Source of the DNA: a virus
Taxonomy: Duplodnaviria; Heunggongvirae; Uroviricota; Caudoviricetes
Strand: one strand, 5' to 3'
Length of the DNA: 64,000 nucleotides
Virus record (IMG/VR): IMGVR_UViG_3300037454_000603
Coordinates: 15,646 to 79,645 of that record
The notes beneath the pieces were generated by a model. That model saw only the letters and a list, made by a program, of their open reading frames with translations, was not told where the DNA came from and searched no databases. A program made the translations under genes and the position numbers. Numbering within the stretch: position 1 is the first letter of the stretch; each line of letters begins with the position of its first letter. Positions 23,143 to 41,775 of this stretch are shown here, piece after piece.

Positions 23143-23799
23143 TTAAAGACCCCACTTCTTAAATTCGTTATCTAAATTTATTTGCCAGTCGTTAAGAAAA
23201 TCTCCAAATATCTGAGTAAAAGCATCTTTAGGCTTCTCGCTATTTTTACTTTCTTCTTTCTTAATATTCAAATTTTTCTGAAGAAAATCCTCCAAATCTT
23301 CAGAAGTTTTTTCATTATAATTGAGAGGCGGCTTAACGTTTTTCATCTTATTAAGTACTTCTTCATCTTTATTAGCCAAAGTCTTGCCCTGATGCTTCAT
23401 TATAAGGTCAAAACAGTTTGGAGCATATTTAACATTATAATTATGAATTTCTGTCTTCAAAGCCTCATACTTACTCAAAATGCTCTGCTCTGCTATTTTT
23501 CTTTCCTTTTCTATTTTATTTTCATTTTCTGTCTCTTTCATTTCACACTTCTGTGCACACATATACATGTCCTTCAATGATGTATAGGTCTTACCACAAA
23601 TAGGACACTTATAAACTCTTTCCATTCTTAAATCCTCCAATTTATTAATAAAATTCCTTTGAGCGTTCTCTGTCCGCCTGCTTACGACGGCGATAATTAT
23701 TGCTTTGTCGCTTATCTTTTTCTTTGTTTCGTTTCTCCTGTTTCTTCTGTTTGTCTCTTTCTCGACGCTGCTCAATTTCGTCCTTGTCATAAACGTCAT
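23143..23799 (-). CDS. Hypothetical protein with a C2C2 zinc finger and a K/E-rich region
   Basis: Intact ORF. Confidence 0.5.
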   Translation of the reverse strand: MTFMTRTKLSSVEKETNRRNRRNETKKKISDKAIIIAVVSRRTENAQRNFINKLEDLRMERVYKCPICGKTYTSLKDMYMCAQKCEMKETENENKIEKERKIAEQSILSKYEALKTEIHNYNVKYAPNCFDLIMKHQGKTLANKDEEVLNKMKNVKPPLNYNEKTSEDLEDFLQKNLNIKKEESKNSEKPKDAFTQIFGDFLNDWQINLDNEFKKWGL

Positions 23800-24380
23800 T
23801 CCGACGGTTCAATTGTAATCCCTCCATAGAATATATTATGAAACTCCTCTGATGTAAAATCGTCAATAGAAGCTACTTCATCACAATGAATAAATAAATC
23901 AAAAATTTCCATTTTATTCTCCTTTAGTCTGTAATATCTTCAGTGGTAGGTGGATAGCACTCAATCCCATAATAAATTTGAGTGTCCACTTCATTGTAAC
24001 TATTAAGAATCTCATTATAAATTTTGAATCTACTTAAAACAAAATCATACTCCTCAATTTCTTCATCAAGAGACTCTATTGTATCCATAATTTCAAAATA
24101 CGTTGAAAGCATATTTTCAGTTTTATTGCTTAAAAGTTTAAGGGCTTTTTTGTAATTTTTCTTTCTTTTTTGAAGAGAAGCGATATCAGCCTTAACTTCC
24201 AGAATAAGCTAATTAAGTTTATCAATAGTAAGTTCTCGAATCTTTTCATAAGGAGCATTAGCACTCATGAGTTCATAAATTCTTGTACTTCTACAAAAAG
24301 TACCGAGCGGAATAAAAACTTCTTTATTTTCTGTTGTTATATAAATATTCAAATATTCACTCACAATATTCCTCTCCTTC

Positions 24381-25121
24381 CTAAAAATATTCGTAGAAAT
24401 TACTATTATAGCCCGCATAATCAAAAATCATACAGCGTCCATCTTTGGCGAAGCCATAATTACCTCTATGTAAATCATCTATATATTCGGTTTCATAAAC
24501 AACCTTCGCCGCCTTAGTAATTCCAAAAGTTTCAATTAATGCACCAACAAAACTTTTACCTAGTCTTTTATTAGTCACATGATTAATTATTTTATTTTTG
24601 ATAGGAGAAATAGTTTTAACATAGTCAATATCAAAACTATATTTTGAATTTTCATAAGTTGTTGAATATTTTTCTTGAATATAAATACTTAAACCATCAA
24701 TATTCATTATAAAAAAATTAGGAGTAAGTATTTGCTGAAGTTCATCAGATGCATTTTCATAGAAATCGTCTTCAATTTGACATACATCTTGAGTTGCTTC
24801 ACCAACGGGTTTAAAATCTGTTTCAAATCCATCTTCATCATAGGTACAGGAATAAAAACCTGTAAAAGGAATTTTTATTACATAATTTCTTTTGCGAGGT
24901 ACAATAACAAGTTTTGTCATTCCCATATAAATTTGAAAATCTTCGTCCCAATCAGGATAAGAAATAAAACTTGGTTCGGGAACAAAACCCGTTATTATTT
25001 CATGGTCTGCAGGATCGGAGTCTCCCATTACCGCTTCTTCAGCAATATAAAGCCCTTCAAGTTTTCCATAACCGAGAGCTTCTCTAACATAATATTCAAT
25101 TTCTTTAATAGAATATTTCAT
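24381..25121 (-). CDS. Hypothetical protein (true start MKYSIKEIEYY)
   Basis: Promoter-module artefact at the N-terminus on the track. Confidence 0.55.
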   Translation of the reverse strand: MKYSIKEIEYYVREALGYGKLEGLYIAEEAVMGDSDPADHEIITGFVPEPSFISYPDWDEDFQIYMGMTKLVIVPRKRNYVIKIPFTGFYSCTYDEDGFETDFKPVGEATQDVCQIEDDFYENASDELQQILTPNFFIMNIDGLSIYIQEKYSTTYENSKYSFDIDYVKTISPIKNKIINHVTNKRLGKSFVGALIETFGITKAAKVVYETEYIDDLHRGNYGFAKDGRCMIFDYAGYNSNFYEYF

Positions 25122-25442: not shown

Positions 25443-26573
25443 TTATTTCAACCCCAAAAATTTTACAAGTTCTTTTGCAGTTTTTCCTTCAATAGAAAGT
25501 TTATCATCGTAAGCTAAATAAGCCCAATTTGTATGCTCATTTAAGTTCTTTTTAACCCAATCAGAAAATTCTTTTCGACTCGCGGCGCAGTGTTCTTTTT
25601 TCCAATTTTCAACCATTTCTTTAACAGCTAAAGTCATACCGATAGCAGCTTTATACTGTAAGCTAACTTTATGAAAGAAGTCACGGTATTGACCAAAATA
25701 AGCTAAAAACTCATCTTGCTCATTTTCAAGTATCATTGCCAGTGCTCTTTCTACTGTTAGAACGCCGTTATTCGCCATTCTATGGAGTTCTACATACTTC
25801 TCAGTTTTGATTTTAACTCTATCGAAATCTGCATCACAAACTACTATTCCTTCATTATTGTCGCCCATATTTTTAACAAATTCACAATAATCTCTTTTGC
25901 TATTAAAATAATAATGTTTGGGGGTCTCAAAACCGCAAGCATCTCCAATCATTTCAACCGCTTCAGGATAAAGTTCTAAAAGAGTTCTCATATCTCTAAT
26001 TGAAAGCAGATAGAGAGCAGGCTCAGGGTAATCTAAAACGATACGCGTAACAGGGCTTACAAGCTCAAAAGTCCAACACTTTATCTTATTATAGTTCTTA
26101 AAATTAGATAGAGGACAAACTGCTTCAAAAAGTTCTCCATAGGTTTTGTAAGGGCTTGCTGGATTATTAATTTCGGCTTTGAAGGCGTCAATACACCCAT
26201 TGGTCGACAAATGCCATTTACCACGAGCATACCAAGCAGACATTATAGAGCCATCTATTTTTTCACTTGCCCACGCGGTAGGCCATTCAATCTGCGCTGC
26301 GTGAGACTCTCCAAGATTAAAAAATCTTTCAAAGGCGAAACGAACAACTTTAAAATTCTGAGTTGAATCGAGAATAAGCCCTCTTGCTTCTCGGCATATT
26401 TTTTCATTAAAATCTGAGTTAATTTGGTTATACTTAAATAATACAAATCCATCATCCCAGCTTATTTTTAAGTTATATGGAGCACCAGAAAGGAGAGCCT
26501 CCCAATCTTTATGCTCATGTATGAATTTAACTATTTCTAACATCTTCTTCTCTCCATTTCCATTTATATCCAT
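25443..26573 (-). CDS. T4 Rnl1-like RNA ligase (motif I EKIDGS; FFNLGE; motif IV EGIVVC; motif V KIKTEKY)
   Basis: Motif order and spacing match RNA ligase 1 by inspection. Confidence 0.7.
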   Translation of the reverse strand: MDINGNGEKKMLEIVKFIHEHKDWEALLSGAPYNLKISWDDGFVLFKYNQINSDFNEKICREARGLILDSTQNFKVVRFAFERFFNLGESHAAQIEWPTAWASEKIDGSIMSAWYARGKWHLSTNGCIDAFKAEINNPASPYKTYGELFEAVCPLSNFKNYNKIKCWTFELVSPVTRIVLDYPEPALYLLSIRDMRTLLELYPEAVEMIGDACGFETPKHYYFNSKRDYCEFVKNMGDNNEGIVVCDADFDRVKIKTEKYVELHRMANNGVLTVERALAMILENEQDEFLAYFGQYRDFFHKVSLQYKAAIGMTLAVKEMVENWKKEHCAASRKEFSDWVKKNLNEHTNWAYLAYDDKLSIEGKTAKELVKFLGLK

Positions 26574-26688
26574 ACGCAGTTTTTCTATCTCCTTTACATA
26601 CTAAACGAATAGAATTTGCTGCACTTCTTGTTTTTCCTATTGCTAAAGCAGCTTCCTCACAAGCTTCATATGTAGCTATAAAATTTCC

Positions 26689-27410
26689 CTATAAGTCATA
26701 TTGATTAACAGGCCTTGCTCCTGTTTTTCGATATGGCTTTGGAGCTGGTTCTCCATGTTTTACAAATAAATATTTTAACGCTCTGCCGCCAGTAGATAGA
26801 GCAGTACTTACCATACTTTCTGTCATATTTAACGCATGAGCAGCAGCACGACCGGACTCATAAGTATTCAAAAAATTACCTTTTAAGTCATAACAGTCAA
26901 TGCAAATTTTTCTTGAAGATTGCATAGCTTTTGTTGCTTTTTCTTTTTGCCTTTGCTTTGCTTCTTCTGACCACCCTTTGAAACCAGATAGAGCATAATA
27001 CACTGTATTACGTCTACATTCATATTCTTTGGCAATTTCATCAACACTAAAGCCTTTGTCCCACAGATTCTTAAATTCCTAATAGTTATACTTCTGCGCA
27101 CCTTCGCCACCAATTGTCGAGTTATACCCTTCTTGGTAAGAGTTATATTCTGCTATCCAATAACATTCTCTATCAGAAAGCGCAGAATTATCTTCTACGT
27201 ATTCAAGCTCTTTTGCTTGAAAATGATCAATACCATATTTTCTTATTGCTTTATAAAAATGTGTATCATGACGGGAATCTCCCTCAGAAGAAAAAGCTCT
27301 ACGTTTATGTTCATGCCATCTATGTTCTATTGTAGAAATTGTCTATCCAATATAAACCTTATCGTTTATATCATTAGTAATTATATAAATGTATCCCATT
27401 TATATCGCCT
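26689..27410 (-). CDS. GIY-YIG homing endonuclease (MGYIYIITNDINDKVYIG-TAG-T...HRWHEH) with a C-terminal NUMOD-like DNA-binding tail. Two in-frame TAG codons.
   Basis: Hand translation; ORF 26689-27003 is its C-terminus. Confidence 0.65.
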
Positions 27411-27770
27411 CCATTTCTGTATTCTATTTATAAAGTAGAAAATTCGCAAAAACAATACAGAAAAATTAAGACTTAATATCCTGTTTTAAAATTCTCTTTC
27501 ACCACCACATAAGCAAATAAAACTCTTCGGGTAGCTTTCCTTCTTCAACTAATTCAAGTGTTCGCTTTAAAATTGCTTTAGACTCAACCTCATCATCATA
27601 ACAATAGTCTTCTCCACTCATTTCTTCAAGCTAATATCGGTCTAAATGAGTAAAGCTATCATTCATCATACCATCTGACAAAAAAGTACTAAGTACAAAA
27701 GACCTTAGAGAAGGGTCAAATTCTTTTTCTAAGTCATTAACATCAACGACAAAAGCTTCCTTATATAACA

Positions 27771-28019
27771 TTATTCTTTATCCACCTCTACTCTTTCAAC
27801 ATAAAGCGGACACTCATTTTCTTCTTGACAATAACAGTTAAAATCGTTAGGATTATCAGAATAATTTTTTGTCAACTGAATTATAGCATTTTTCTTGTCA
27901 ATATTATCTAACCATTCCAAGCCCATTATATTTTCGATAACTTCAACAAGGGCTCTTTCGGAGGTAGAATAAGCTCCTAAAACACAACCCATCCAATCTG
28001 TAATAACCCAAATTTCCAT
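27771..28019 (-). CDS. Hypothetical protein
   Basis: Intact ORF. Confidence 0.45.
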   Translation of the reverse strand: MEIWVITDWMGCVLGAYSTSERALVEVIENIMGLEWLDNIDKKNAIIQLTKNYSDNPNDFNCYCQEENECPLYVERVEVDKE

Positions 28020-28020
28020 T

Positions 28021-28278
28021 TTAATCCTCCTTTTCCTTCCAATTTATATTATAAACTTCTTTTAAAGTATTAATCATACATTGTCTATAATCAGGATACT
28101 TGTTATTTTCCAATCGAGCGATAATTTGTTCCTTTGAAGCTGGTGTAAAATTATTCTCATTCATTGATGTTAAACAATTCATATCACCAAGAGCACAAAT
28201 ATGACAATCAAAACAAGGAATTATATCTTCATCATTCCAATGACTGAACATTTTTAGTCCTCCATTTCCGCGCCGCAA
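28021..28278 (-). CDS. Hypothetical protein
   Basis: Intact ORF. Confidence 0.45.
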   Translation of the reverse strand: MRRGNGGLKMFSHWNDEDIIPCFDCHICALGDMNCLTSMNENNFTPASKEQIIARLENNKYPDYRQCMINTLKEVYNINWKEKED

Positions 28279-28529
28279 TTAGGGCAATAACTTGTATATC
28301 TTTCAAGCGGTACTTCTATTGCGCCGCACGACGAGCAGTCCGCGCAATCAAGAGTACCATAAGCTGTAGTTATCTTGCCCCAGTTAATCCACTTACCCTT
28401 CTTACGCTCTGTCTCAAAAGAGTCTTCGTGATATTCAAATCTACCAATAAGACTGCGGAGATCAGTCTCGCCGCAGCACCTCATATCATTAACTACATCT
28501 TCAACAGTATCAACAGGAACTACTAACAT
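28254..28529 (-). CDS. Zinc-ribbon protein
   Basis: Intact ORF, CxxC pairs. Confidence 0.45.
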   Translation of the reverse strand: MLVVPVDTVEDVVNDMRCCGETDLRSLIGRFEYHEDSFETERKKGKWINWGKITTAYGTLDCADCSSCGAIEVPLERYTSYCPNCGAEMED

Positions 28530-28530
28530 A

Positions 28531-28800
28531 TTAATTCTCCTTTCTGTATGAAGAATAGATTATTTTTTCTATTCTTGGTAATACCTCTGTTTCTTTAAGA
28601 TTATTTCTTAAACAAAAATCCTGTGTAAAAGCCTTGATGGAGAAATTTATGAAAGTTCTTAAAATTTCAGCTTCCTCATCATCAGACAGTTGCTCAGGTC
28701 TATTTATATAATATTTATGGAAAATTCCTTCTGATGGACAGTTTGGGTCAACTTTCATAATCGTAATTTGAAAAGCATTAAAATTTTGAATTTCTTGCAT
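28531..28800 (-). CDS. Hypothetical protein
   Basis: Intact ORF; promoter module at 28810-28860. Confidence 0.45.
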   Translation of the reverse strand: MQEIQNFNAFQITIMKVDPNCPSEGIFHKYYINRPEQLSDDEEAEILRTFINFSIKAFTQDFCLRNNLKETEVLPRIEKIIYSSYRKEN

Positions 28801-28802
28801 TT

Positions 28803-29180
28803 TTATTTCCTTTCTTTTTCTTTTCTATATATATTATAACAAAATTTTTTAAATTTTTCAAATTTTCTTTCTGATTTCAGCCTATTAATTCGTATAATCA
28901 TTGGAAAAGGCGCCTTTGTGCCTATATCAACTACATCTGACGAGATATAGATATACTCAGACGACAGATATTCTTCATTCATAGATTGAAATTCTACCAT
29001 TTTACAAGGCCCTTTCATGGTTATATTGTGCCGCCCAAATTTATCTACATATTCATAAGATATTATTGCTATCTTTTTGGACGGATCTATAAAGAAATTA
29101 TAAAATCTATCCACTTTAAATATTTTACTCATTTTATCCATTTTTTCTCTTATTCCCGCACCTCTACTCTTCGTGCCCAT
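28803..29180 (-). CDS. Hypothetical basic protein
   Basis: Intact ORF. Confidence 0.45.
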   Translation of the reverse strand: MGTKSRGAGIREKMDKMSKIFKVDRFYNFFIDPSKKIAIISYEYVDKFGRHNITMKGPCKMVEFQSMNEEYLSSEYIYISSDVVDIGTKAPFPMIIRINRLKSERKFEKFKKFCYNIYRKEKERK

Positions 29181-29407
29181 CGACTATTTTGACCACAATT
29201 AAATCCAAAAAATAATTCATTTTGTCTATAAGAAGATTTTAGAAAATCTTGATAAGGTTCTGGATTAAAACTTCGAGATTCAGCAATATCTTCAATGTAA
29301 TGATATAAATAGTAATAGGCTCTATTTGCTGTTTTAAAAATTATTGGTTCATCTCTATAACAACTTTCAATTATCCATACATAATCCATTTTAATTTCTC
29401 ACTCTCC

Positions 29408-30016
29408 TTACTTAAACAACCCGAGTTCTTCTATATGTCTTCCTTGAATAGTGTGATAAATTTCTTTCCAATCTTTACAGAAAGTAACATCATTCTTTTC
29501 TGCATATTGCTCTGCTTTAAATTTCTCATTCCAAGGGTACTCAAAGCAAATGCCATGATAGGGCGGCGAATCAATAAAATGGTCGTAACAATCATCAACC
29601 AGAAAATCTACATTAAGTAACTGTTTCTTTTTAATTGAAATTGCGTGCTGACGTACATAGTCCTCTGGGAAGAAACTTAATTCCCTAGTTAAAAAGCTAA
29701 TTTTCTTTCTAAAATTTTCTGCTGTTGTTGCGGTCGCAAAATAAATTTCAGCACCTTCTTCATATAGTTTATGAATATAATATGCCGCCCCATCAATCAT
29801 TCGAACCTTTTTCCAGACAGACTTTTGCTCAAAAGCTATAGGAACAATCCACTGACATTCTGGCGGCAAAGCATCTTCAATCCAATATGAAGTCATATCT
29901 TCCATTTTTAAATTAACTTGTGGAAAACAAGAGTTAATAAAAGCAAGAATTTGAGTTGTTGTATCTGTTAGAACATTGTCTATATCAATTGCTATTTTCA
30001 TTATCTTCCCCCTCAC
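29408..30016 (-). CDS. HAD-family 5'(3')-deoxyribonucleotidase-like phosphatase (IAIDIDNVL)
   Basis: DxDxV motif at the N-terminus. Confidence 0.55.
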   Translation of the reverse strand: MRGKIMKIAIDIDNVLTDTTTQILAFINSCFPQVNLKMEDMTSYWIEDALPPECQWIVPIAFEQKSVWKKVRMIDGAAYYIHKLYEEGAEIYFATATTAENFRKKISFLTRELSFFPEDYVRQHAISIKKKQLLNVDFLVDDCYDHFIDSPPYHGICFEYPWNEKFKAEQYAEKNDVTFCKDWKEIYHTIQGRHIEELGLFK

Positions 30017-30386
30017 AAACCCACTTCATTACTTTAACTTCTTTGTAATAACAACGGCGAGGTACCTGCGGCTCATATTCTTCTATTCCATAGTCGTCAT
30101 GCTGCCAAAAATGCACCATATAATGTTCGTCGTCTTCAATATCAATTATATATTCCCTAATAACCCAGCCGCGCCGCCCCTCACCTACTATATCTCCATA
30201 GTCATAATGAAAAAGGTCCCAACCAAAAATCAAATCCAAATCATCAACAGTTTCTCCATTTCTAAACATTTCTTTAAGATGATTTATCATGAAGTCTTCT
30301 TCTTCTTTGGAAACCATAGTATTTATTCCATCTTCACTCCAGTTTTCTCTATCTGTAAATCTTTCAACTATATCTTTATAATCCAT
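29985..30386 (-). CDS. Hypothetical acidic protein
   Basis: Intact ORF. Confidence 0.45.
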   Translation of the reverse strand: MDYKDIVERFTDRENWSEDGINTMVSKEEEDFMINHLKEMFRNGETVDDLDLIFGWDLFHYDYGDIVGEGRRGWVIREYIIDIEDDEHYMVHFWQHDDYGIEEYEPQVPRRCYYKEVKVMKWVCEGEDNENSN

Positions 30387-30440
30387 TATTCATCACCTCA
30401 CCTTTTATATTCATATCACTTTTATTATCCTAGTTATATA

Positions 30441-30878
30441 TTAACAGCTGCTGTCTTCCAGTTTTCTTTGCTGTTCTTCAATCTGCTCTTCTATTCGAGT
30501 AGCTTCAAGCCTTTTTAATTTAAGAGCCGTCTTTAATCTGTTAAGTTCAGCGTTTTTCTCAGCTTGTTCTTTTCTTCTTTTTTCTTCTTCTATAAGTTCA
30601 TCGAGCTCTTCGTCCGTCATATTAAACCACTCATAACGAATATCAAATTCTTCTGTATAACATTGCCCACGATACACGCTATCCCACATTAATGTAATAG
30701 TTGACTCATTAAAAGATAAATCAAATTCCCAAGGCTCACTCGACGGGACATCAGAACAAAATTTTTTGGCTATATCCCTCGCCGCAATTTTCAATTCATC
30801 TGTAAGTCTATTAATTTCGGTAATGTTATCAATAGAAAATCTTGTTCTCATACTTAATTTCTTCCTTTCTTTTACCAA
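30441..30878 (-). CDS. Hypothetical coiled-coil protein
   Basis: Intact ORF. Confidence 0.45.
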   Translation of the reverse strand: MVKERKKLSMRTRFSIDNITEINRLTDELKIAARDIAKKFCSDVPSSEPWEFDLSFNESTITLMWDSVYRGQCYTEEFDIRYEWFNMTDEELDELIEEEKRRKEQAEKNAELNRLKTALKLKRLEATRIEEQIEEQQRKLEDSSC

Positions 30879-31192
30879 TCCACAGTAAGTCTATATCCTT
30901 CTATTTTTAAGGCGGTTCCCGTTAGCTCTCTTATACAAGTTGAATAGCCTTCTTTTTTATAACAATCAGATAATTCATCTATAACATCTTCAATTTGATA
31001 AATATCTTCAAAGTTAGTTTCGGTTGTATAAAGAGTTAATTCAATATCGGCGTTACTTTCACCACAAAAAGACCTATTTTTTATAGCTTCCTTCATCATT
31101 TTGTTAGCTATCCACAAATTTCGATCAATTTTGCCAGAATGAAGGTCTGTTCTCTCCATCGCTTTCTTTATAGAATAAGGTTTAATATTCAT
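30872..31192 (-). CDS. Hypothetical protein
   Basis: Intact ORF. Confidence 0.45.
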   Translation of the reverse strand: MNIKPYSIKKAMERTDLHSGKIDRNLWIANKMMKEAIKNRSFCGESNADIELTLYTTETNFEDIYQIEDVIDELSDCYKKEGYSTCIRELTGTALKIEGYRLTVDW

Positions 31193-31427
31193 ATTTCTCT
31201 TCCTTTCTTAAAAGACACCCTGCTAAGTAACCATCTCTAAAGGCTTCCATTATATCATAAAACATATCACGTTCTTCTGGCTCAATCCAATCTTCAAGTA
31301 TATTTTCTAGAATATTAAGTTCGTAATCCTTCATCTTAGTGAAACTTACATTATTAAAAGGAAGATTAAATTTATAAATTGCATAATTTATCGCTGCTCG
31401 CCTAGCTTTATTTTCCATTTCATTCAT
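31182..31427 (-). CDS. Hypothetical protein
   Basis: Intact ORF; promoter module at 31440-31490. Confidence 0.45.
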   Translation of the reverse strand: MNEMENKARRAAINYAIYKFNLPFNNVSFTKMKDYELNILENILEDWIEPEERDMFYDIMEAFRDGYLAGCLLRKEEKYEY

Positions 31428-31519
31428 TAATTTTTCACCCTTTTCTTTTTTCTATAACAATTATATCACAAAAAATAAAAAAAGTCAAAGAATTTTCTTC
31501 TTTGACTTTTCTTTAACTA

Positions 31520-32398
31520 TTACTTTTCTACCGTAGCTTCCTTTGAAATAGAATCTTCTATGTTAAAGATGAAGCCGTTACCTTCTCCAACAACCTTGGG
31601 CATTATACCGTCCCAACGTTCAATCTGATTAAAGTAAAGAACGTTCTGGTCAATAGACTCTGAAATCTTCTTATTGGCCTCTGCCTGAGCCTCAGCCTTT
31701 GCAAGAATAGCTTCTGCTTCTGCTTGTGCGGCGATAGTTTTTTCTGAAGCCGCGGCCTCAGCTTCTACTACTCGTCTTGCTTTTTCTGTCTCTGCTCTCA
31801 GTTTGTCCTGCTCTGCGATTTGCTTCTGTTCTATTGCATCATCATATTCCTTAGAAAAATCAAAATTAACAATAGAAAATTTCTCAATATAAATTCCATA
31901 AGAATTTAGTTTGTTATCGAGGGCAGTCTTAATTTCATCACCAACTATGTCACGCTGAGCTATCAAATTTTCAGCAGTATAACGAGCAGTAGCAGCTTTA
32001 ATTGATTCTTGTGCCGCGGGCGCAATTAAAATTGTCTCATAATCAAGTCCAACATTTTGATACATAGAAGCACTTGAATCTCCGACAAGGCGATAGTTGA
32101 TTGCAACTTTTGAATTTACAGACTGAAGATCCTTAGACACTGCACCAGCGTCAGCTTCAAGAAGTTGTACTTTATTAGACATATCAACTACGTTTGTAAT
32201 AAAAGGAGTCTTTAAATGAAAACCTTCATTATAAGTATCCTTTGATACACTACCAAGTCGTACTATTACGCCAGTGCAACCAGGTGGCACGATTGTTATT
32301 GAACTTAAAATTACTATTAAAGCAATTATGGCAATCGCTACAAAAACTATAACTCTTTTAAGTGGAAACTTTACGATAGTTGTATTAGTCTTATTCAT
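31520..32398 (-). CDS. SPFH/band-7 (prohibitin/HflC-like) membrane protein with an A/E-rich coiled-coil tail
   Basis: N-terminal TM segment, SPFH-like core, AEAEA repeats; RBS AGGAGG before MNKTNTT. Confidence 0.6.
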   Translation of the reverse strand: MNKTNTTIVKFPLKRVIVFVAIAIIALIVILSSITIVPPGCTGVIVRLGSVSKDTYNEGFHLKTPFITNVVDMSNKVQLLEADAGAVSKDLQSVNSKVAINYRLVGDSSASMYQNVGLDYETILIAPAAQESIKAATARYTAENLIAQRDIVGDEIKTALDNKLNSYGIYIEKFSIVNFDFSKEYDDAIEQKQIAEQDKLRAETEKARRVVEAEAAASEKTIAAQAEAEAILAKAEAQAEANKKISESIDQNVLYFNQIERWDGIMPKVVGEGNGFIFNIEDSISKEATVEK

Positions 32399-32411
32399 TT
32401 TTTTCCTCCTA

Positions 32412-34110
32412 TTATTCCTTATTACCCTGAGCCGCGATACCATTAAAATTAAATATGTTATTACCACCGCACATCTGGCTCATAAGTATCATGGTAAGAA
32501 AATCATTATCATTACCGTCTTTACTCATAAATATAAAAGGAAGCATCTGATTCATGTTAGTATTGTTACCCATCATCTGAGACATCATAAGGAACTTAAT
32601 CATATCACCGTCGTTGCCCTTGGTTATATCGCTAAACATCATAAGAGGCATCATGTTTCCAAAAGGAGTATTCTCATTTGCAGTATTTGCAAAACTTTCA
32701 AAAGGATTAATAACCTTAGTCATATAATTAAATCCGAAAATATTGACCTGTGGAATTATAGTCTTAACGTCACCGCCAATAGGATTTACTACCTTCACAC
32801 CATCATCTACAAGTTCCTTAACAATTACATAATCACCCTTAAATCTTACAACGTCATTAGGCTGAATCTGATTCACAGCAACAGGCATTGCAAACATAGG
32901 TGCCTCAATGGTCATACCAGTTACATCAATTGCTCGATTGTCCTTGTAAACAAAAAACTTGCCACTCTTATCTGCAAAAGCAACACCATTTATAGAATAC
33001 TTAATCTTATTTGTAGTAAGCTTACCAAAATCTACATCATTAAATATATTATTGAAAATCTCACTCATATTACTTTTTTCCTCCTTGTTTTTAATTACCT
33101 CTATGTTTGAATGATTTTGAAAATTAATACAGCAATCAGAAAATGATGCCGTTGAACTTATTTGATCTAAATCACTAGAAGATATAAAAAGACCTTCTTT
33201 ATTTGTGTTATTAACAAGACCATTATGATTAATTAAAGGTTTTAATATATCTTCTTCATTTAAAATGAGCTTATTATTATTAAGATTAATTACTTCATTA
33301 ACATATCGCCTTTTTAATTCATGATAATCAATAGTAGTATATCTACCACAATTATCGAGAGAACTATAACTAAGTTTAGAATTATTATAATTTACAGAAA
33401 CTTCATTTTTTTCAACAAAATTTTTAATCCATTCTGTACCAAATTCATTTTCAAAAATCTGTGCTTTTATAATAATTTTCCATTCTTTCTTATCTATTAA
33501 ATAAGTAATATTATCTTCATCTACAGTTGTTTTACCTTCAATTCTTATATCAGTATCCTTATATGATGGAACATAATCATAAGTTTTCAAAAATCTATCT
33601 GTATTATTTCTTAGCTCTTTAATATGAATAATGTCTCCAATTTGTAATTTATCGTAGAGCTCTTTATCAAGAATTTCATAAGGATAAACTTTTGACTCTA
33701 AAGCAAAAACTCCTCTATTACTAGCAAAACGTACAAAGACTATATTATGCAACTTCTCTTCTCCTTTCTTTTGATTTAAATCAATTGGTAAAATTTCAAA
33801 ATATTCGGTTTCGGTCTAATAAGTTATCGTCCCATCTGTAGAAGCTTCTTTAAAAAACAAAAGTCTACCTAGCCTATTAGTTAATCGAATACAGACAAGT
33901 TTACCATTAATAACACCCGTATAACGAATTTCTCTCCATTCAGTTCCATTTTTATTGAAATCTTTAAGGCTCAACAAAGGAGTATCAGTAGAGAAAGTAA
34001 ATTCTGCCATACTTCCATAGCATGAGACTTCTAATTGTAAATTAAAAGCTTCTATTATCTAAGGCTCTTTTGTATCGTAAATAATTGTTATAGTCTCACT
34101 CATAATTTCC
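32412..34110 (-). CDS. Large hypothetical protein with a Met/Asn-rich C-terminus and in-frame TAG codons in its N-terminal third
   Basis: ORFs 32412-33752 and 33816-34010 are joined through TAG codons; boundaries approximate. Confidence 0.4.
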
Positions 34111-34167
34111 TCCTTTCTTTTATTTTCTATATTAATTATACTATAAAATAAAAGAAAAGTCAAAAAA

Positions 34168-34494
34168 TTATTTTTTGTCTCCCTTCATCCATGCGCCGCA
34201 AGTAGGACAATAATCAGTCATTATACGACTTTGAGGTTCGCTTTTACAGTTTGAACAATAAGGATAGTAGCCATCAGAACAAATTTCCCATTTTGCGGCA
34301 GGAGTTAAAGAAACAGCTTCAGTAATAGGAAGCTTTTCAACTTCTCTAATCACGTCTTCAATTTGACAATCACCAGTACAATAATCGCAAAAGTCGCAAA
34401 AATCTTCCTTAATCATATTCATAAAATCACTTTTTTTGATAAATCCTTCCATTGATAACAACTCTCCCTTAAAAGTCATAATATAATTTTCCAT
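34168..34494 (-). CDS. Cys-rich zinc-finger protein
   Basis: Intact ORF; GC motif/SD upstream. Confidence 0.5.
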   Translation of the reverse strand: MENYIMTFKGELLSMEGFIKKSDFMNMIKEDFCDFCDYCTGDCQIEDVIREVEKLPITEAVSLTPAAKWEICSDGYYPYCSNCKSEPQSRIMTDYCPTCGAWMKGDKK

Positions 34495-34566
34495 TTTAAT
34501 CCCTCTTCATTTGCGCCGCCAGTACATTTAAAAAGGCTTAGTTATAAAAACTAAGCCATAAGCTAA

Positions 34567-34637
34567 AGCGGCATAGGGTAATCGAAACCCCATCTAGGCG
34601 GTGGAAGCGCCTCATTCTACCATTAAACTAATGCCGC
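34567..34637 (-). tRNA. tRNA-Gly (UCC)
   Basis: Acceptor GCGGCAT/ATGCCGC; anticodon stem AGGCG/CGCCT; loop CTTCCAC. Confidence 0.7.
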
Positions 34638-34693
34638 AAAGAATAGGAGCCAACGCAGGCGCTAAGCTCCCGAAGAACATAAGTTCTTGTTCA

Positions 34694-36157
34694 TCAAGCC
34701 CAAGTAAACTCGGGCTTAGTTAAAATTTCTTCCATTGCTTCAAAAGCACTTTTATTAATCAAAGTCTGCATGAATTTGAAAGTTCCAGTACTTTGACCAG
34801 AAACATAGCCAACATTTTCACTACATCTTGAAAGAGTATTGTTGCTTCTAGATTCAACATTCCAGTAGATAATCTTGCTCATAGGAACTCCAATATATTC
34901 AAACTTTTTCTTCCACTTTTCAGCTATTGATTCGCAATAATCCTGTCCTGCCCAACTATTAACTTCCATATCTGAAATTATTACAATTGCTTTGGGAGCA
35001 TCATGACTCATTCGAGCAACTTCATAAACCTTAGCAAAAACTGCATCAAGGTTAGTTGACCAACCCCAGTTAGCACTCATGACCTGTCTTACGCACTGAG
35101 TTAAAGACCAATTATCAGAAATCTTATGGAAAGAAGGACTAGAGGAAAAATTACAAAAAATATTATGATATTCTCCATGATTTCTCTGGGCAAAATAAAT
35201 TGCAAGACCAACAGCAGTAGAAATAGGTCGATAACCATCGTATTCCATGGAACCACTGGTATCAGCTACTACGAGTATATTATCACTTTCGCCCACATAG
35301 TTAGGAAGTGCCTTCCACTGTTCCTCAGCTATAGTGTCAAGCTCTCTAACACTCTTGGAGCAAAGAGGCTTGACAATATCATAAGGATAAAGAGTTGCCG
35401 CATTAACCTTGGCTTCTCCCTTTACAAGAGCATCCTTATACTTCTGGAATCTCTCAGGAACTCTCTTGTTAAAAGTAGAAATATATCTACTCATAGCTAC
35501 GGAAGGAACGCCCTCAAAGTTAATTTCATTCCACTGGCCAGCGCTCATCTTCTTTTCGACCACGTCTATATACTTTCTCATTGTGGAAAGAGTCTTACGA
35601 TAAGTTCTAGGAGTTACACTAAACTTTTTGCAAAACTTATTTGCCAACTTTCTGGTTTCGTCAGATGAAGTATTAATAGATGGCATCCATTTAGCAAGCA
35701 AAGTAATGGGTTTATTCTCTCTCATATTCTTCACATCAGTTCGAAATTGAGTCTCGACAAACTGCCACATTTCAGTTTCAACTGATGTTCCTTCAAAAAC
35801 AAAAAGGTCGTCCCATCTACCTGTATCAACAATCTTCTGGAAATTCTTCTTTATCTTCTCGGAATTAAATTTGGCAAGCTCTTTGAGAAGGAGTCGCCCA
35901 ATTCGTCTCTCTCCAAGACCACCATCTCTTACATTTCTAGCATAAAGGACGAGGTTATCCGCAAGTTCTTCATTTTCACGTCTCGCCGCCTTCCAAGTCT
36001 GAATTATATCTATATCTTCTCTATTCCTCATACCACCAATGTTAGCGAAAAGATCAAGCAAATCGCCGCCATCAGTGGTATTAAAACAACGTCCGCCATT
36101 CTCAGTATAAGTCTTAATTGCTTCATTCTTAAACATATCTGCAAAACTCATTTCCAT
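34694..36157 (-). CDS. rsr: Ro60/Rsr orthologue. N-terminal TROVE domain plus C-terminal vWA domain (MIDAS motif DTSGSM).
   Basis: Domain order and the MIDAS motif read by eye; an adjacent Y-RNA-like element lies at 36190-36292. Confidence 0.6.
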   Translation of the reverse strand: MEMSFADMFKNEAIKTYTENGGRCFNTTDGGDLLDLFANIGGMRNREDIDIIQTWKAARRENEELADNLVLYARNVRDGGLGERRIGRLLLKELAKFNSEKIKKNFQKIVDTGRWDDLFVFEGTSVETEMWQFVETQFRTDVKNMRENKPITLLAKWMPSINTSSDETRKLANKFCKKFSVTPRTYRKTLSTMRKYIDVVEKKMSAGQWNEINFEGVPSVAMSRYISTFNKRVPERFQKYKDALVKGEAKVNAATLYPYDIVKPLCSKSVRELDTIAEEQWKALPNYVGESDNILVVADTSGSMEYDGYRPISTAVGLAIYFAQRNHGEYHNIFCNFSSSPSFHKISDNWSLTQCVRQVMSANWGWSTNLDAVFAKVYEVARMSHDAPKAIVIISDMEVNSWAGQDYCESIAEKWKKKFEYIGVPMSKIIYWNVESRSNNTLSRCSENVGYVSGQSTGTFKFMQTLINKSAFEAMEEILTKPEFTWA

Positions 36158-36189
36158 TTCTCCTTTTAACTCAAGATAATTTTTAATTT

Positions 36190-36292
36190 GTTGCTGTTTT
36201 ATCTTACTATCACGACGGTCATTCGGGCACCGTGCCCTATTTTTTTAAGGAGGGAGTCGAACCCTGCCCAAGCAATTCTGGGAGCTTTTATT
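36190..36292 (-). ncRNA. Y-RNA-like (YrlA-like) structured RNA. The 5' and 3' ends pair (ACGACGGT/ACCGTCGT). It contains a tRNA-like T-arm (GGGTTCGACTCCC) and an internal hairpin GGGCACGGTGCCC. It lies between the promoter module (36310-36360) and rsr.
   Basis: Seen in the sequence; synteny with the Ro60 orthologue. Confidence 0.5.
36228..36262 (+). terminator. Plus-strand intrinsic terminator GGGCAC-CG-GTGCCC then TATTTTTTT. It is embedded in the Y-RNA-like element.
   Basis: GC stem followed by a T-run on the plus strand. Confidence 0.45.
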
Positions 36293-36374
36293 TTTGGTTT
36301 GCTGAACCGTCGTTTTTAATTTTCTATAAATAGTATAACAAAATTTTCAAATAAAATCAAATTTTTAATTTAGT

Positions 36375-36587
36375 TCATATCTCTTTGAATGCATATATTT
36401 GCTCTAACAATTCAGAATAACAACCATAGAAACTGTTATCATATACTGTATTGCTGATATTACATGGATCAAACTTAACTCTGAACCTTGTTTTTTCTTT
36501 GCCATTATCGCAAATACATTTTTCTATCTCAGTTATCGTACCCCAGTAACCCTGAACACAAACTTTCATACCTATTGTGATATTCAT
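36375..36587 (-). CDS. Hypothetical protein
   Basis: Intact ORF; promoter module at 36630-36690. Confidence 0.45.
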   Translation of the reverse strand: MNITIGMKVCVQGYWGTITEIEKCICDNGKEKTRFRVKFDPCNISNTVYDNSFYGCYSELLEQIYAFKEI

Positions 36588-36703
36588 ATTTTATACCGTC
36601 CTTTTCAGTTTTTCCAAGGATTTTCCGTTTTCTTTTTACTATAATAATTATAGCAAAAAATTTTAAAAAGTCAAATAATATTAATTATCCAGTTTAATTT
36701 TGA

Positions 36704-36916
36704 TTACTTTTTGTGAAATCTAATTGAGTCTTTATATGAAGCTCTTCGACCACAACAGGGACATTTGCAATACACATCAAAAGGTAAGCAAGGCGGCGTA
36801 ATAGATACATCTCTATCTCCTCTATCCGCCTTCCATTCACATTCACAAACTGAACAATAAAAGAAAAATTCACCTATTCTACGATATTGAGATTTTCCTG
36901 CTTTAACTACTCTCAT
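36704..36916 (-). CDS. Zinc-ribbon protein
   Basis: Intact ORF; promoter module at 36940-36990. Confidence 0.45.
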   Translation of the reverse strand: MRVVKAGKSQYRRIGEFFFYCSVCECEWKADRGDRDVSITPPCLPFDVYCKCPCCGRRASYKDSIRFHKK

Positions 36917-37017
36917 ATTATTTTCTCTCTTTCTTTTTTTATTATAATTATTATAACAAAAAATTTTAAAAAAGTCAAATAAAAAGAAAGACTATATAAA
37001 CATAGTCTTCCTTATGC

Positions 37018-37105
37018 TGGCGCCGCAGGAAAGATTCGAACTTTCAGACTCTTACAAGCCGATGCTTTTCAAGAGCACGCCTCCTCCCCTCTAAGGTACT
37101 GCGGC
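37018..37105 (-). tRNA. tRNA-Ser (UGA), type II, CCA encoded
   Basis: Acceptor GCCGCAG/CTGCGGC; loop CTTGAAA; long variable arm. Confidence 0.7.
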
Positions 37106-37117
37106 AAATACAAGACA

Positions 37118-37230
37118 CTATTAATTAAACTCCGCTCTACCGACTGAGCTATTCTCCCATAAAATAGGAGAAGATGGATTCGAACCATCGACACGAGGCT
37201 TAAAAAGCAAATTAAGCGAGTTGCTGTAGT
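37118..37230 (-). tRNA. Permuted or fragmented type-II tRNA. A 3' half (anticodon-stem 3' strand AACTC, long variable hairpin GCTTAAtttgctttTTAAGC, T-arm GATGG-TTCGAAT-CCATC, acceptor TTCTCCT) sits upstream of its cognate 5' half (GGGAGAA, D-stem GCTC/GAGC, anticodon-stem 5' strand GAGTT). The flanks are 9-bp complementary (TAGTGTCTT/AAGACACTA).
   Basis: The halves complement each other but are in reverse genomic order. Confidence 0.4.
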
Positions 37231-37238
37231 GTCTTAAT

Positions 37239-37315
37239 TGGTTTCTCGGCTCCGAATTGAACGGAGGTTTCAAGCTTTTAGAGAGCTGAATGCTGACCAC
37301 TTACACTACCGAGAA
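37239..37315 (-). tRNA. Amber suppressor tRNA, anticodon CUA (loop CTCTAAA), U1-A72 Gln-like acceptor, CCA encoded
   Basis: Acceptor TTCTCGG/CCGAGAA; D-stem GTGT/GCAT; anticodon stem CAGCT/AGCTT; T-arm CTCCG-TTCAATT-CGGAG. Confidence 0.8.
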
Positions 37316-37321
37316 ATATTA

Positions 37322-37990
37322 TTAAATTTTATCCCATTCTTCATTGGAATAAGAATTAATGTCTTTTTTTCTTCTTGGAAGTCCATATTTATCACACCAT
37401 TTTCTTACTGCATTATCGGATACATTACAATTTTTTCCTATTTCACTAAAAGAAAATTGACGTATCCTTTGCTTAAGTTCTTCTCGTGTAAAAGGACATT
37501 TCCATTTCTTCTCTTTCTTTTCCTCTTTTTCTTCTTTTTTTCTTATGGGATAAGATTGATTCTTTTGCTTCCACATTTTCCCATTGTTTATCTAGGATAT
37601 TAAACAATGACTAACGTTATATTTCTTTGCAATTTCTTCCCCAGTAAGAGAAGCGTTTTTTAAATCATATACAATTTCATTTGCAATATTCCAGTTAATT
37701 TTGTACTACATATTTTCAATAGTACTCATATTATATCCATTCGGGGTCATTGTATTATATTTATTTATATAATATTTTTCTTTATCATTAAGTTCTGTCA
37801 AGGCGCATTCTTCTATTACCTCGAAAGAGAAGTTCTCTTTTCCATACTCTCGCATTGCCTAATATAATAAAGTATTCTTTGTATTCATTTTATTCTAATG
37901 TTCTCTCCATCTTCTTCTAATATCATTGGACTATCCAATATAAGACATTCCATTAGATTTATTAGTAACTTTATAAATTCCTATCATTTA
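37322..37990 (-). CDS. GIY-YIG homing endonuclease (MIGIYKVTNKSNGMSYIG-TAG-SNDIRRRWREH-TAG) with the shared C-terminal HTH tail. Four in-frame TAG codons.
   Basis: Hand translation; ORF 37322-37576 is its C-terminus. Confidence 0.7.
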
Positions 37991-38024
37991 AATCACCCTT
38001 AAAATAAATTAGAGAGTATTATAA

Positions 38025-38096
38025 CGCCCTTGGAAGTAATCGAAACCTCATCTTGGGTTCCGTAGACCCACGTCCTATCCATTGAACGACAAGGGC
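38025..38096 (-). tRNA. tRNA-Arg (ACG)
   Basis: Acceptor GCCCTTG/CAAGGGC; anticodon stem TGGGT/ACCCA; loop CTACGGA. Confidence 0.7.
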
Positions 38097-38103
38097 AAAT
38101 TAG

Positions 38104-38176
38104 TCTGAGAACAAGGACTCGAACCTTGACCTGCAGGGCCACAACCTACAATGCTTACCGTTACACCACTCCCAGC
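38104..38176 (-). tRNA. tRNA-His (GUG) with an extra G at -1
   Basis: Anticodon stem GTAGG/CCTGC; loop TTGTGGC; D-stem GTGT/GCAT. Confidence 0.6.
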
Positions 38177-38187
38177 ATATAATTAAT

Positions 38188-38250
38188 ACAGGTGAAGAGA
38201 TTCGAACTCTTACTGTCTGCGTTCTTAGCGCAGTTTCTCTACCAGTTGGA
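38188..38250 (-). tRNA. tRNA with anticodon AAG (Leu-decoding), type-I short variable arm
   Basis: Anticodon stem CTGCG/CGCAG; loop CTAAGAA; T-arm AAGAG-TTCGAAT-CTCTT. Confidence 0.5.
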
Positions 38251-38280
38251 ATACACCTGCATATGCCCCGAAGGGCAATT

Positions 38281-38793
38281 TTATTTAGATAGCATATTTG
38301 CTACACCAGAAGCCGCATAGCTATCTGGCTTAATTCTAGCTTCAAAACCTGAAGCCTCAATCCAACCACAAATTTCTTTTATAAGTTCCTTAGTCTTGCC
38401 GCGGCGACCAATGTCAGCATGAACAGCAAAAGACAAACGATTTTCATCAAACATTATATCAAGATCAATGTTATCTTCAAGTAGTTCTTCTTGAAGAGCA
38501 TCAATGAAACCCATTGCATTCACAATTGAACGGTTAGTTTCTTCGATAATCTTTTCCTTTAGGACTTTTATCTTAGGAATATCTTCTCTGCGGAAGAAAA
38601 AAATACCACCGTCACCAATACGGCAAACAGCTATAACTTCAACCATACGAGTCATTTTGTGATTTTGAGAGTCAGTACCAACAGTTATATCATAACTTTC
38701 TGAAGGATTAACTCTAATGTAATCTGCAATTACCTTAATCATTTCGCTGTAAGAAACTTCCTGACCATTACCACGCTTAAATATCTTTTCCAT
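38281..38793 (-). CDS. Hypothetical protein, possibly RNase H-like fold (ITVGTDSQ)
   Basis: Intact ORF; weak motif only. Confidence 0.3.
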   Translation of the reverse strand: MEKIFKRGNGQEVSYSEMIKVIADYIRVNPSESYDITVGTDSQNHKMTRMVEVIAVCRIGDGGIFFFRREDIPKIKVLKEKIIEETNRSIVNAMGFIDALQEELLEDNIDLDIMFDENRLSFAVHADIGRRGKTKELIKEICGWIEASGFEARIKPDSYAASGVANMLSK

Positions 38794-38889
38794 TTTTGTT
38801 CTACTCCTTTATTTTTTAAATAAAGCAAGACAGTTTAGGTATTGTTTTTAAAAGAAACAGCCATAAAGAGTTGCTGAAACTGTCTTTAA

Positions 38890-39008
38890 TCGAGATGACA
38901 GGACTTGAACCTGCAGCTTCTTGCTCCTGGCGCCAATGGCTGGAGTTGCACCAGCTAATACTCTTCACTGACCAAAGCAAGCCGTCTACCAAATTGACTT
39001 ACATCTCG
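38890..39008 (-). tRNA. Aberrant ~119-nt tRNA-like gene. Acceptor (CGAGATG/CATCTCG) and T-arm are good, but there is a ~45-nt extra segment between the D-arm and T-arm. Anticodon unresolved.
   Basis: CTTGC...GCAAG brackets a 50-nt insert. Confidence 0.4.
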
Positions 39009-39018
39009 TTATATGGAC

Positions 39019-39780
39019 TTAAATTAAAGCCCATTCTTCATCTGTATAGTTATTTATATCTGTCTTTCTTCTAGGTAGTTTTTCAAAATCACACCATTTG
39101 CGAATAGTATTATCAGAAACATTATATATTTTTCCTATTTGAGTAAAAGGTTTTGTACGAATTAATTGTTTTAACTCTTCCCTTGAAGGTCGCTCAACTG
39201 TTCTAAAAAATAACTAATTACATTTTACACATCTAGTAGATTTATAATCTATTTCTGCTCCACAATCTATACAATATTTTTGTTCTCTTTTATCTCCATG
39301 TCTTTTTTTAGATATTGCTTGAATGGGATATTCTCTATCATGTTTCCAATATCGTCCAGTATTAATACCTTGTATCATTTCTACAGATATATTCCACTTT
39401 TCTGCTATTTCTCTATGAAACATATCTGTCTTTTCTAAATCATTTATTATACCAATAATTTTTTCCTTATTAATTTCATTTCCAGAGCTATCTCCGCCAA
39501 TAGTCAAATTATATCCCTCAAAAAATGAATTATACTATTTAATATAGCTTTTTTCTTTTTCATTCAACTCAGAAACTAAACATTCTTCAAGAACTTCAAA
39601 AGTAAAATTTTCAAAACCGTATTTTCTTATTGCTCTGTATAAAGGTTTATCATAATTATGATCATTAGGATTAAATGCAGTTGATTTATGACCTCTCCAT
39701 CTTTTCTTTATATCTTTGCTCTATCCAATATAAACTTTTCCGTTAATCTAGTTTGTAATCTTATAAATTCCTATCATATT
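39019..39780 (-). CDS. GIY-YIG homing endonuclease (MIGIYKITN-TAG-INGKVYIG-TAG-SKDIKKRWRGH) with a zinc ribbon and the shared HTH tail. In-frame TAG codons.
   Basis: Hand translation; ORF 39214-39507 is an internal piece. Confidence 0.65.
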
Positions 39781-39890
39781 TACCACTCTCCATACATCAT
39801 TAACCACTCATTTAATATAAAATTAAGGGAAGAGTGAGTGGTTACTCTTATCAATAGGTTTGCAATTCCTATCTATCCCCTAATATCAAT

Positions 39891-39963: not shown

Positions 39964-40031
39964 ATATTGCTAATATAATTATTAGCAACATCATTGAAAA
40001 GAAAGGTCAAAAATGGCAGTATTTGACCTAA

Positions 40032-41650: not shown

Positions 41651-41666
41651 TTACAATAGGAGGTGA

Positions 41667-41774: not shown

Positions 41775-41775
41775 G

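Follow-up and report, generated by a model that had tools for sequence, protein, structure and literature searches.

A stretch of 64,000 nucleotides from a virus of the Caudoviricetes (IMG/VR record IMGVR_UViG_3300037454_000603, positions 15,646 to 79,645; hereafter the window) carries on its minus strand a gene (34694-36157) for a Ro60-like ring protein of the Pfam families DUF2828 and DUF7788 and, within 6 kb upstream of this gene, seven small RNA elements built on a stem and a CAGCAA core. One of the seven is a structured RNA that an earlier note on this DNA had singled out, and together the elements are probably Y-RNA-like partners of the protein, with the copy in the gene's leader taking part in feedback. 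The wider proposal, which we hold with about as much belief as doubt, is that CAGCAA-stem elements are widespread, undescribed Y-like RNAs of phages that serve as ligands of DUF2828 proteins, that the leader copies mediate autoregulation, and that the resulting ribonucleoprotein acts in counter-defence or RNA surveillance.

The protein has 487 amino acids and consists of an alpha-solenoid ring followed by a von Willebrand factor A (vWA) domain. It matches DUF2828 (PF11443; E = 8e-30, 104.4 bits against a cut-off of 29) and DUF7788 (PF25043; E = 8e-26, 91.1 bits against a cut-off of 27.1), and PHROG 850, labelled 'RNA-binding protein', covers residues 4-484 at E = 2e-113. The MIDAS (metal-ion-dependent adhesion site) motif DTSGSM reported in the earlier note is indeed present, within VVADTSGSME, and its residues D299, S301 and S303 (DxSxS) are invariant across 41 homologues, 36 of which match VWA_2. 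An AlphaFold2 model computed from a 41-sequence alignment (predicted local distance difference test score 90.2, predicted template modelling score 0.89) was compared with the PDB using Foldseek, and the best 13 matches were all Ro60/TROVE structures (E 4.5e-9 to 8e-6, template modelling (TM) scores of 0.57-0.61 over about 500-550 aligned columns), including those of Thermus phage phiLo Ro60 (9KOP, 9L5Y) and of the Xenopus, human and Deinococcus proteins. PDB matches confined to the vWA domain reached a TM score of about 0.25 at most.

The gene had previously been read as Ro60/Rsr of the TROVE plus vWA type, with a missing TROVE match named as the result that would count against this. The fold part of the description stands and the family part does not: Pfam gave no TROVE (PF05731) match for the protein, and none of the 41 homologues matched TROVE even at E <= 10. 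Similarly, PDB sequence searches found no Ro60 with the single protein, and none with the profile, which returned just weak integrin I-domain matches. As such, the predicted structure points, at the level of fold only, to a Ro60 architecture in a protein that nevertheless sits in a separate sequence family. This family is large, with more than 5,700 metagenomic clusters and 707 phage records that include Felixounavirus, herelleviruses of Listeria, Enterococcus and Staphylococcus, phages of Campylobacter, Vibrio, Aeromonas and Bacillus, and cluster L mycobacteriophages, whose members carry the annotation 'Ro-like RNA binding protein'. In a relative with 83% identity (L002, 2679-5227), the DUF2828 gene is interrupted after about 80 codons by an insert of about 1.07 kb, intron-like in appearance, that carries a GIY-YIG/NUMOD3 homing-endonuclease reading frame.

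An RNA of about 100 nt had been described directly upstream of this gene on the same strand. Such an RNA is present, 102 nt long and with four helices, at 36212-36313 on the minus strand, about 20 nt away from the position first given for it (36190-36292), and it ends 54 nt 5' of the start codon. Its termini pair as had been described, ACGACGG (36313-36307) with CCGTCGT (36218-36212), forming a stem (P1) of 7 bp that is lengthened to 9 bp in the minimum free energy fold; after P1 the sequence runs UUCAGCAAACC, with CAGCAA at 36304-36299. Read from 36313 to 36211, the element is ACGACGG-uu-CAGCAA...GGGUUCGACUCCC...GGGCACGGUGCCC...CCGUCGU-G. The tRNA-like T-arm could also be confirmed as a bulged 7-bp helix at 36269-36249 with GGGTTCGACTCCC inside it at 36264-36252, and the further parts are a V hairpin and an acceptor-like (AS) hairpin at 36237-36225. 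There is no D-arm, with just GAAUGA between the AS hairpin and the 3' strand of P1. Folded alone, the RNA gains only modestly over shuffled sequences (z = -2.2), so this fold by itself proves little and the real support for the RNA lies in its orthologues.

Four distinct orthologous sequences (from loci L003/L004, L009, L175 and L176) each fold alone into the same four helices with compensatory changes. The L009 sequence was recovered at 59 bits by a covariance model built from the 102-nt RNA (R1), and those of L175 and L176 by a metagenome pattern scan. The first 33 nt are identical in L003/L004, although the neighbouring protein is 65% identical, and the hairpin GGGCA/UGCCC there becomes GGACA/UGUCC. 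Across the orthologues, P1 changes from CGG/CCG to UAG/CUA with two compensatory pairs in L009 and L175, the V hairpin keeps its position throughout, the T-arm retains 7 bp with a bulge and a UUCGACU loop, and the AS hairpin occurs as GGGCA, GGACA, GGCGG and GGCGA, each with a matching partner strand. A T-arm with a canonical UUCGA loop in an element that lies among tRNA genes and is called by neither ARAGORN nor the Rfam tRNA model might also be the remnant of a decayed, functionless tRNA pseudogene, but the identity of the 5' 33 nt in L003 at 65% protein identity, the four helices kept through compensatory changes, and the occurrence of the same stem-plus-CAGCAA module in more than 100 other elements make this reading barely credible; conservation and covariation largely refute it.

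Apart from L009, R1 returned weak partial matches, and its other matches in the window at 62992-63032 and 21484-21523 proved to be terminator hairpins. A near-identity DNA search of phage genomes gave no match. Single RNA copies appear and vanish between close relatives (L176 compared with L009 and L008).

The RNA had further been credited with its own promoter and classed as a YrlA-type Y RNA. A promoter-like site, TTGATT-17-TATACT with a TG extension (TGnTATACT), does lie at 36332-36360 on the minus strand, and a matching arrangement precedes the orthologous RNA in L003; the site comes from a consensus scan only, and in so AT-rich a sequence comparable sites show no enrichment relative to shuffles. 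The class assignment could not be upheld. Like YrlA (RF02553), the RNA has paired termini and lies on the same strand within about 4 kb of a Ro60-like gene, but it lacks the 69-bit gathering score, the GNCGAAN0-1G motif, which CAGCAA replaces here, and the combination of T and D arms, and in a search of Rfam over 36100-36420 neither YrlA nor any other family matched meaningfully at E <= 10. The 102-nt RNA is real and conserved, but it is not YrlA-type, and what the earlier note had missed is its membership in a family of seven copies.

The family came to light in the 130 nt upstream of the gene across 64 related loci, where the pattern often stands just before the Shine-Dalgarno sequence. Its members consist of a stem strand, 2-3 nt, CAGCAA, a variable insert, the complementary stem strand and a G; in the constant module the stem has 7-9 bp, usually AAGAY...RUCUU followed by G, and CAGCAA is single-stranded. 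Core variants include CCGCAA and CAUCAA. A first stem screen admitted G-U pairs and three lengths of spacer and was not stringent enough, as controls likewise gave stems of 7-9 bp; it was replaced by Watson-Crick-only criteria combined with strand, shuffle and unrelated-locus controls. The resulting strict definition requires 7 or more Watson-Crick pairs, a core without mismatches and a G following the stem. By this definition, 72 DUF2828 loci (630 kb) hold 106 motifs in the orientation of the gene and 2 in the reverse orientation, compared with 1.3 expected when the sequence downstream of the same sites is shuffled. The unrelated control set was obtained from an exact 15-mer scan of viral contigs for ACGGTTCAGCAAACC, whose 97 matches were all chance or coding occurrences (for example, tail-fibre 'DGSANQVL' repeats); these 97 loci contain 8 strict motifs on both strands together (1774 kb). 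Just one control locus, L135, has three copies, and in this locus, as in no other of the set, a DUF2828 homologue is encoded (E = 2e-60).

The stems are diverse, with 74 distinct 7-bp stems among 111 distinct instances. In a collapsed alignment of 34 sequences, all seven stem pairs vary on both sides and the covariation score is 1.02, compared with 0.23 for shuffles and 0.08-0.14 for slid partners. Lengths in the family peak near 34, 60 and 120 nt, and a T-arm is found in 23 instances. Rfam 15 contains no CAGCAA-stem family, as judged from scans of the window, the related loci and the elements of cultured phages, and in the literature searched there was no mention of DUF2828 in this context, nor of CAGCAA together with phages and tRNA-like RNAs.

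The seven elements of the window are all on the minus strand and span 36173-42131; there are no copies on the plus strand, nor in the tRNA clusters at 6-20 kb. Besides the 102-nt RNA, they comprise a minimal member of 33 nt at 36173-36205 (AAGAUAA-aa-CAGCAA-11 nt-UUAUCUU-G); a member of 124 nt at 37112-37235; one of 60 nt at 38827-38886 (AAGACAGU-uu-CAGCAA...ACUGUCUU-G), separated by 3 nt from a preceding tRNA-like gene; one of 104 nt at 40114-40217, with the T-arm-like hairpin GAAGGUUCAAACCCUUC and a further hairpin, ending 8 nt before tRNA-Glu; one of 82 nt at 41690-41771 (AAGAUACU-ua-CAGCAA...AGUAUCUU-G; z = -3.5), 3 nt after tRNA-Tyr; and a probable member of 63 nt at 42069-42131 (AAGACACU-ua-CAGCUA...AGUGUCUU-G), 7 nt after tRNA(CUA), which falls outside the strict definition by one core mismatch. 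In the 124-nt member, which folds at -41.3 kcal/mol (z = -4.4), P1 is accompanied by a V hairpin, a T-arm, an acceptor-like hairpin that is closed, and a D-arm. All 114 positions of the YrlA model align to it, those of the T, acceptor-like and D arms among them; the score is 34.8 bits, where the gathering score is 69 (local E = 2.2e-6), and the element carries CAGCAA instead of GNCGAA. Judged by this alignment, the YrlA-like tRNA mimic of the locus would be this permuted-tRNA element and not the 102-nt RNA.

The description of the window as rich in tRNAs holds, with 26 tRNA genes called by ARAGORN, and a scan of the window with Rfam at gathering thresholds returned tRNAs only. Since the elements stand 3-8 nt from the flanking tRNAs, tRNA-processing enzymes probably release them. 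Several tRNA-like genes, in the window and in L053, L069, L042, L045 and L014, carry inserts of about 45 nt or more, giving Rfam matches of 113-138 nt, and a tRNA-like stretch of 119 nt (38890-39008, minus strand), matched by Rfam and uncalled by ARAGORN, stands immediately before a CAGCAA element. Among the elements and tRNAs, the minus strand also encodes, at 38281-38793, an RNaseH_like protein (PF04308, E = 5e-41), and its gene recurs upstream of the DUF2828 gene in the close relatives L002 (1212-1724) and L003 (1-172).

The 33-nt copy occupies a distinctive position, as it ends about 6 nt before AAAGGAG, the Shine-Dalgarno sequence of the Ro60-like gene. It is the sole significant match in the window, on either strand, to a collapsed stem-plus-core covariance model (R2) built without window sequences (29.4 bits, E = 1.8e-4); large inserts defeat this model, so that the long copies rest on the explicit pattern search. 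Furthermore, when elements with 6 or more Watson-Crick pairs and no more than one mismatch in the core are counted, an element ends no more than 50 nt from the start codon in 38 of 68 loci, where 2.5 would be expected from shuffling. The sequence enclosed by the leader stem of L042 and of L045 scores as a tRNA, at 55 bits.

No terminator-like site was found among the 102-nt RNA, the 33-nt hairpin and the reading frame, which makes it probable that in this phage the two RNAs belong to the mRNA leader. The same uninterrupted succession of promoter, RNA, mini-hairpin, Shine-Dalgarno sequence and gene, together with the recurrent leader position, could mean that the two are purely cis-regulatory structures of the 5' untranslated region, such as an operator, and not stand-alone small RNAs. 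We regard this as unlikely, though it deserves some weight: in L003, a second promoter and an 85-codon reading frame stand between the gene and the orthologous RNA, which has a promoter of its own, the orthologue in L009 lies about 800 nt upstream, and most copies of the family stand between tRNAs or downstream of the gene (as in Felix O1 and Faith1), where they cannot be leaders. For the 33-nt copy, this explanation overlaps with the one that we favour, in which a Ro60-like protein has Y-RNA-like partners and one of them sits in its own leader.

Cultured phages extend the association. In Felix O1 (FO1a), four copies follow closely downstream of gp42 (record 23794-24626), one of them with T and D arms; Listeria phage LMTA-34 has three directly upstream of its DUF2828 gene; Bacillus phage Tsamsa has four upstream of its DUF2828 gene, among tRNAs; and mycobacteriophage Faith1 has three immediately after gp55 (record 41991-42247). 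The complete Faith1 genome of 76 kb has no copies beyond these three, and none is in its tRNA cluster 20 kb away, which indicates that the motif tracks the DUF2828 gene and not tRNA clusters as such. The Rfam YrlA model misses the Felix O1, Faith1 and Tsamsa elements at E <= 1. LMTA-34 also has, upstream of its DUF2828 gene, a match to ROOL RNA (L169, 961-1512; 88.5 bits against a threshold of 99.1), and L053 holds a HEARO RNA (108-350; 139 bits).

Actinobacteria, Firmicutes and Proteobacteria differ in their RNase repertoires. This bears on the idea that the elements are punctuation or stability cassettes of tRNA operons, independent of the protein and serving as signals for processing or protection by host RNases, with the proximity to DUF2828 an incidental consequence of the tRNA region. 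The spacers of 3-8 nt to adjoining tRNAs are in keeping with this idea, as are a good-looking copy in phage T5, where no DUF2828 gene is present in the region examined, and contig L176, which retains the RNA without the gene. It is improbable nonetheless, because the tRNA clusters of the window at 6-20 kb and the tRNA cluster of Faith1 are free of copies, all three Faith1 copies directly follow the Ro-like gene, and the same core is found in phages of Actinobacteria, Firmicutes and Proteobacteria, always beside a DUF2828 gene.

If the elements are instead partners of the protein, the constant module (P1 and the single-stranded CAGCAA) would be the docking site of the DUF2828 ring, much like the Ro60-binding stem of Y RNAs. 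The variable inserts would then act as effector or decoy modules, ranging from nothing through partial tRNA mimics with only a T-arm, such as the 102-nt RNA, to the full YrlA-like permuted tRNA. Elements within tRNA-operon transcripts would be released by tRNA-processing enzymes. The 102-nt RNA and the 33-nt hairpin, both promoter-proximal, would form the 5' leader of the protein's own mRNA, and such leader copies may load the protein in cis, provide translational feedback, or both. The particle may serve RNA surveillance or counter-defence during infection.

Several points weigh against this proposal. The link between DUF2828 and Ro60 is seen at the level of fold alone, and that the protein binds these RNAs is something we infer. 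Selection of the stems demanded pairing, so the 100% pairing of the family alignment is true by construction; the unbiased support for the family is the contrast between strands, with shuffles and with control loci. There are 27 of the 72 loci without a strict copy, though many have cores with one mismatch. The 102-nt RNA is precisely absent from L008, and the 3-kb contig L176 (165-1540) retains it with about 530 nt in place of the DUF2828 gene, a replacement that could reflect misassembly. Phage T5 has one CAGCAA element with a 9-bp stem and no DUF2828 gene in the 49 kb examined. Finally, Bas63 gp130, a Ro60-like protein of a Felixounavirus, counters the Ppl defence when moved alone into T7 (bioRxiv 10.1101/2024.10.10.617714), and at least the anti-Ppl phenotype may therefore not need RNAs. 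The T5 element lies at T5 record positions 39584-39660 (L172, 19585-19661, minus strand), has a trailing G and is downstream of the SPFH-like lipoprotein gene T5.080; a second copy in the T5 tRNA region is chance-like.

The earlier note had gone further and proposed a single RNA-repair module, in which a canonical Rsr/TROVE protein and an adjacent YrlA join with an Rnl1 ligase and a HAD phosphatase. Both enzymes were identified correctly. The T4 Rnl1-like RNA ligase at 25443-26573 (minus strand) matches RNA_lig_T4_1 (PF09511; E = 1e-14, 55.4 bits against a cut-off of 28.3) and PHROG 562 (E = 4.5e-43) and retains nucleotidyltransferase motifs I, IV and V (KIDG, EGIVV, KIKTEK), so that it appears to be a genuine Rnl1-type ligase, if loosely linked to the Ro60-like gene. 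The HAD nucleotidase at 29408-30016 (minus strand) is a 5'(3')-deoxyribonucleotidase of the NT5C type (PF06941; E = 2e-14, 54.3 bits against a cut-off of 24.8) with the N-terminal DxD motif IAIDIDNV (DIDNV). The known role of the NT5C family is in the metabolism of deoxynucleoside monophosphates and not in RNA-end healing, and nothing ties this protein to RNA repair.

Co-occurrence in related phages, which the earlier note had suggested examining, argues against a conserved operon: among 72 loci, only 7 have a ligase homologue at a distance of about 5 kb or less from the DUF2828 gene, and 4 have an NT5C homologue there. In the window itself, the ligase is 8-10 kb from the Ro60-like gene with unrelated genes between them (Band_7, NUMOD1 and unknowns), and no polynucleotide kinase was found among the window reading frames scanned. 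The module as first drawn is consequently a very doubtful proposition. The Ro60 fold, the sub-threshold YrlA match 950 nt upstream, the two RNA ligases in the window and the combination of Ro-like protein, RNA ligase and polynucleotide kinase in cluster L mycobacteriophages (PMC13148394) speak for it, but it already fails on family membership with the absence of a TROVE match, and the RNA that it invoked has no Rfam match, D-arm or GNCGAA motif. The case for a conserved repair module is weak; with two ligases here and the cluster L combination, a shared theme at the level of the genome is plausible.

The second ligase, of the Rnl2 type (PF09414), is encoded at 50796-52457 on the minus strand, and an intein with an HNH endonuclease interrupts it. 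Another protein (32412-33752 plus 33816-34010, minus strand), of unknown family and with no Pfam or PHROG match, is encoded downstream of the DUF2828 gene in 15 of 72 loci and is thus a commoner neighbour than the ligase. There are also signs that TAG is reassigned in this lineage. The window has two tRNAs with the anticodon CUA (37239-37315 and 42139-42216, both on the minus strand) and, under genetic code 11, just 24 open reading frames of at least 140 amino acids in 64 kb; the window homologue (32412-34105, minus strand) of a 570-amino-acid gene in L003 has in-frame TAG at 34061 and 33818, and the GIY-YIG gene of L002 has TAG at the glutamine position of YIGQT. CAGCAA corresponds to two glutamine codons in a lineage that seemingly reads TAG as glutamine. 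This match is probably coincidental, and the core is also found in phages without signs of recoding.

To our knowledge, Ro60-Y RNA particles have been recognised in animals, bacteria and a few phages, in each case with TROVE-annotated proteins only. DUF2828 proteins are far commoner in phages than TROVE-annotated Ro60, and their labels, 'RNA-binding' or 'Ro-like', come without a known RNA partner. The CAGCAA signature, simple and easily searched for, supplies named candidate ligands in cultured, tractable phages, so that direct tests can be made of what the Ro-like proteins of phages bind, including for Bas63 gp130, presumably a DUF2828 member by synteny, which counters the Ppl defence system. 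In the tRNA regions of phages, it also points to dozens of small RNA genes that lack annotation, and it would give the Y-RNA concept a second recognition motif. Phage homologues of Ro60 that have Y-like RNAs and 'Ro-like' labels for the DUF2828 family are already known; what appears to be new is the CAGCAA-stem RNA family, its close and strand-specific association with the DUF2828 genes of phages whose hosts are unrelated, and the presence of a copy in the leader of the DUF2828 gene itself.

Of the systems with which the locus can be compared, the stable small RNAs of T5 (RNA1, RNA2, RNA3 and others; NC_005859) share with it a position among phage tRNA genes and, in some cases, a tRNA-like form. 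Unlike the window locus, the T5 region examined has no DUF2828 gene and just one element that fits the motif well. A closer parallel is bacterial Ro60 (Rsr) with YrlA and YrlB (Chen et al., 2014, PMC4201824; RF02553). Such Y RNAs lie on the strand of the Ro60 gene and no more than 4 kb from it, phages included, and a short 5' motif has been implicated in binding (PMC4201824). Both systems have a ring-plus-vWA protein and several RNAs per locus, and the element at 37112-37235 has the tRNA-like order of YrlA, namely V, T, acceptor-like stem and D. In contrast to bacterial Rsr, the protein here belongs to DUF2828/DUF7788 without a TROVE match, and the RNAs differ from YrlA in that their conserved motif is CAGCAA and not GNCGAAN0-1G (the best YrlA score being 34.8 against a gathering score of 69), most copies have no tRNA-like part, and one copy lies in an mRNA leader beside the Shine-Dalgarno sequence.

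Among phages, Thermus phage phiLo encodes a Ro60 that binds two Y-like RNAs (Yrl1 and Yrl2) and host PNPase (PMC12135203; PDB 9KOP, 9L5Y). It is a phage protein of the same fold and the best structural match found here (E = 4.5e-9, 16% identity). Its two RNAs lie directly upstream of the Ro60 gene, were chosen by a CGAA motif and show a stem-bulge-stem form (PMC12135203), whereas the elements described here carry CAGCAA, number seven, are interleaved with tRNAs and are putative ligands.

Relatives of the protein also occur in phages for which Ro-like proteins have already been annotated or studied. Faith1 gp55, a direct homologue of the window protein (30% identity over 94% of the query), is among the 'Ro-like RNA binding proteins' of SEA-PHAGES, as is LeBron gp53 (PMC13148394). 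Bas63 is a Felixounavirus, and the homologue in Felix O1, gp42, likewise lies directly upstream of tRNAs; this synteny with FO1a gp42 suggests that Bas63 gp130 belongs to the DUF2828 family. The Bas63 authors guessed that some of the neighbouring 'tRNAs' might be Y RNAs (bioRxiv 10.1101/2024.10.10.617714). Whereas no partner RNAs were identified in the Bas63 and SEA-PHAGES studies, the present analysis offers concrete candidates in the CAGCAA-stem elements downstream of FO1a gp42 and Faith1 gp55.

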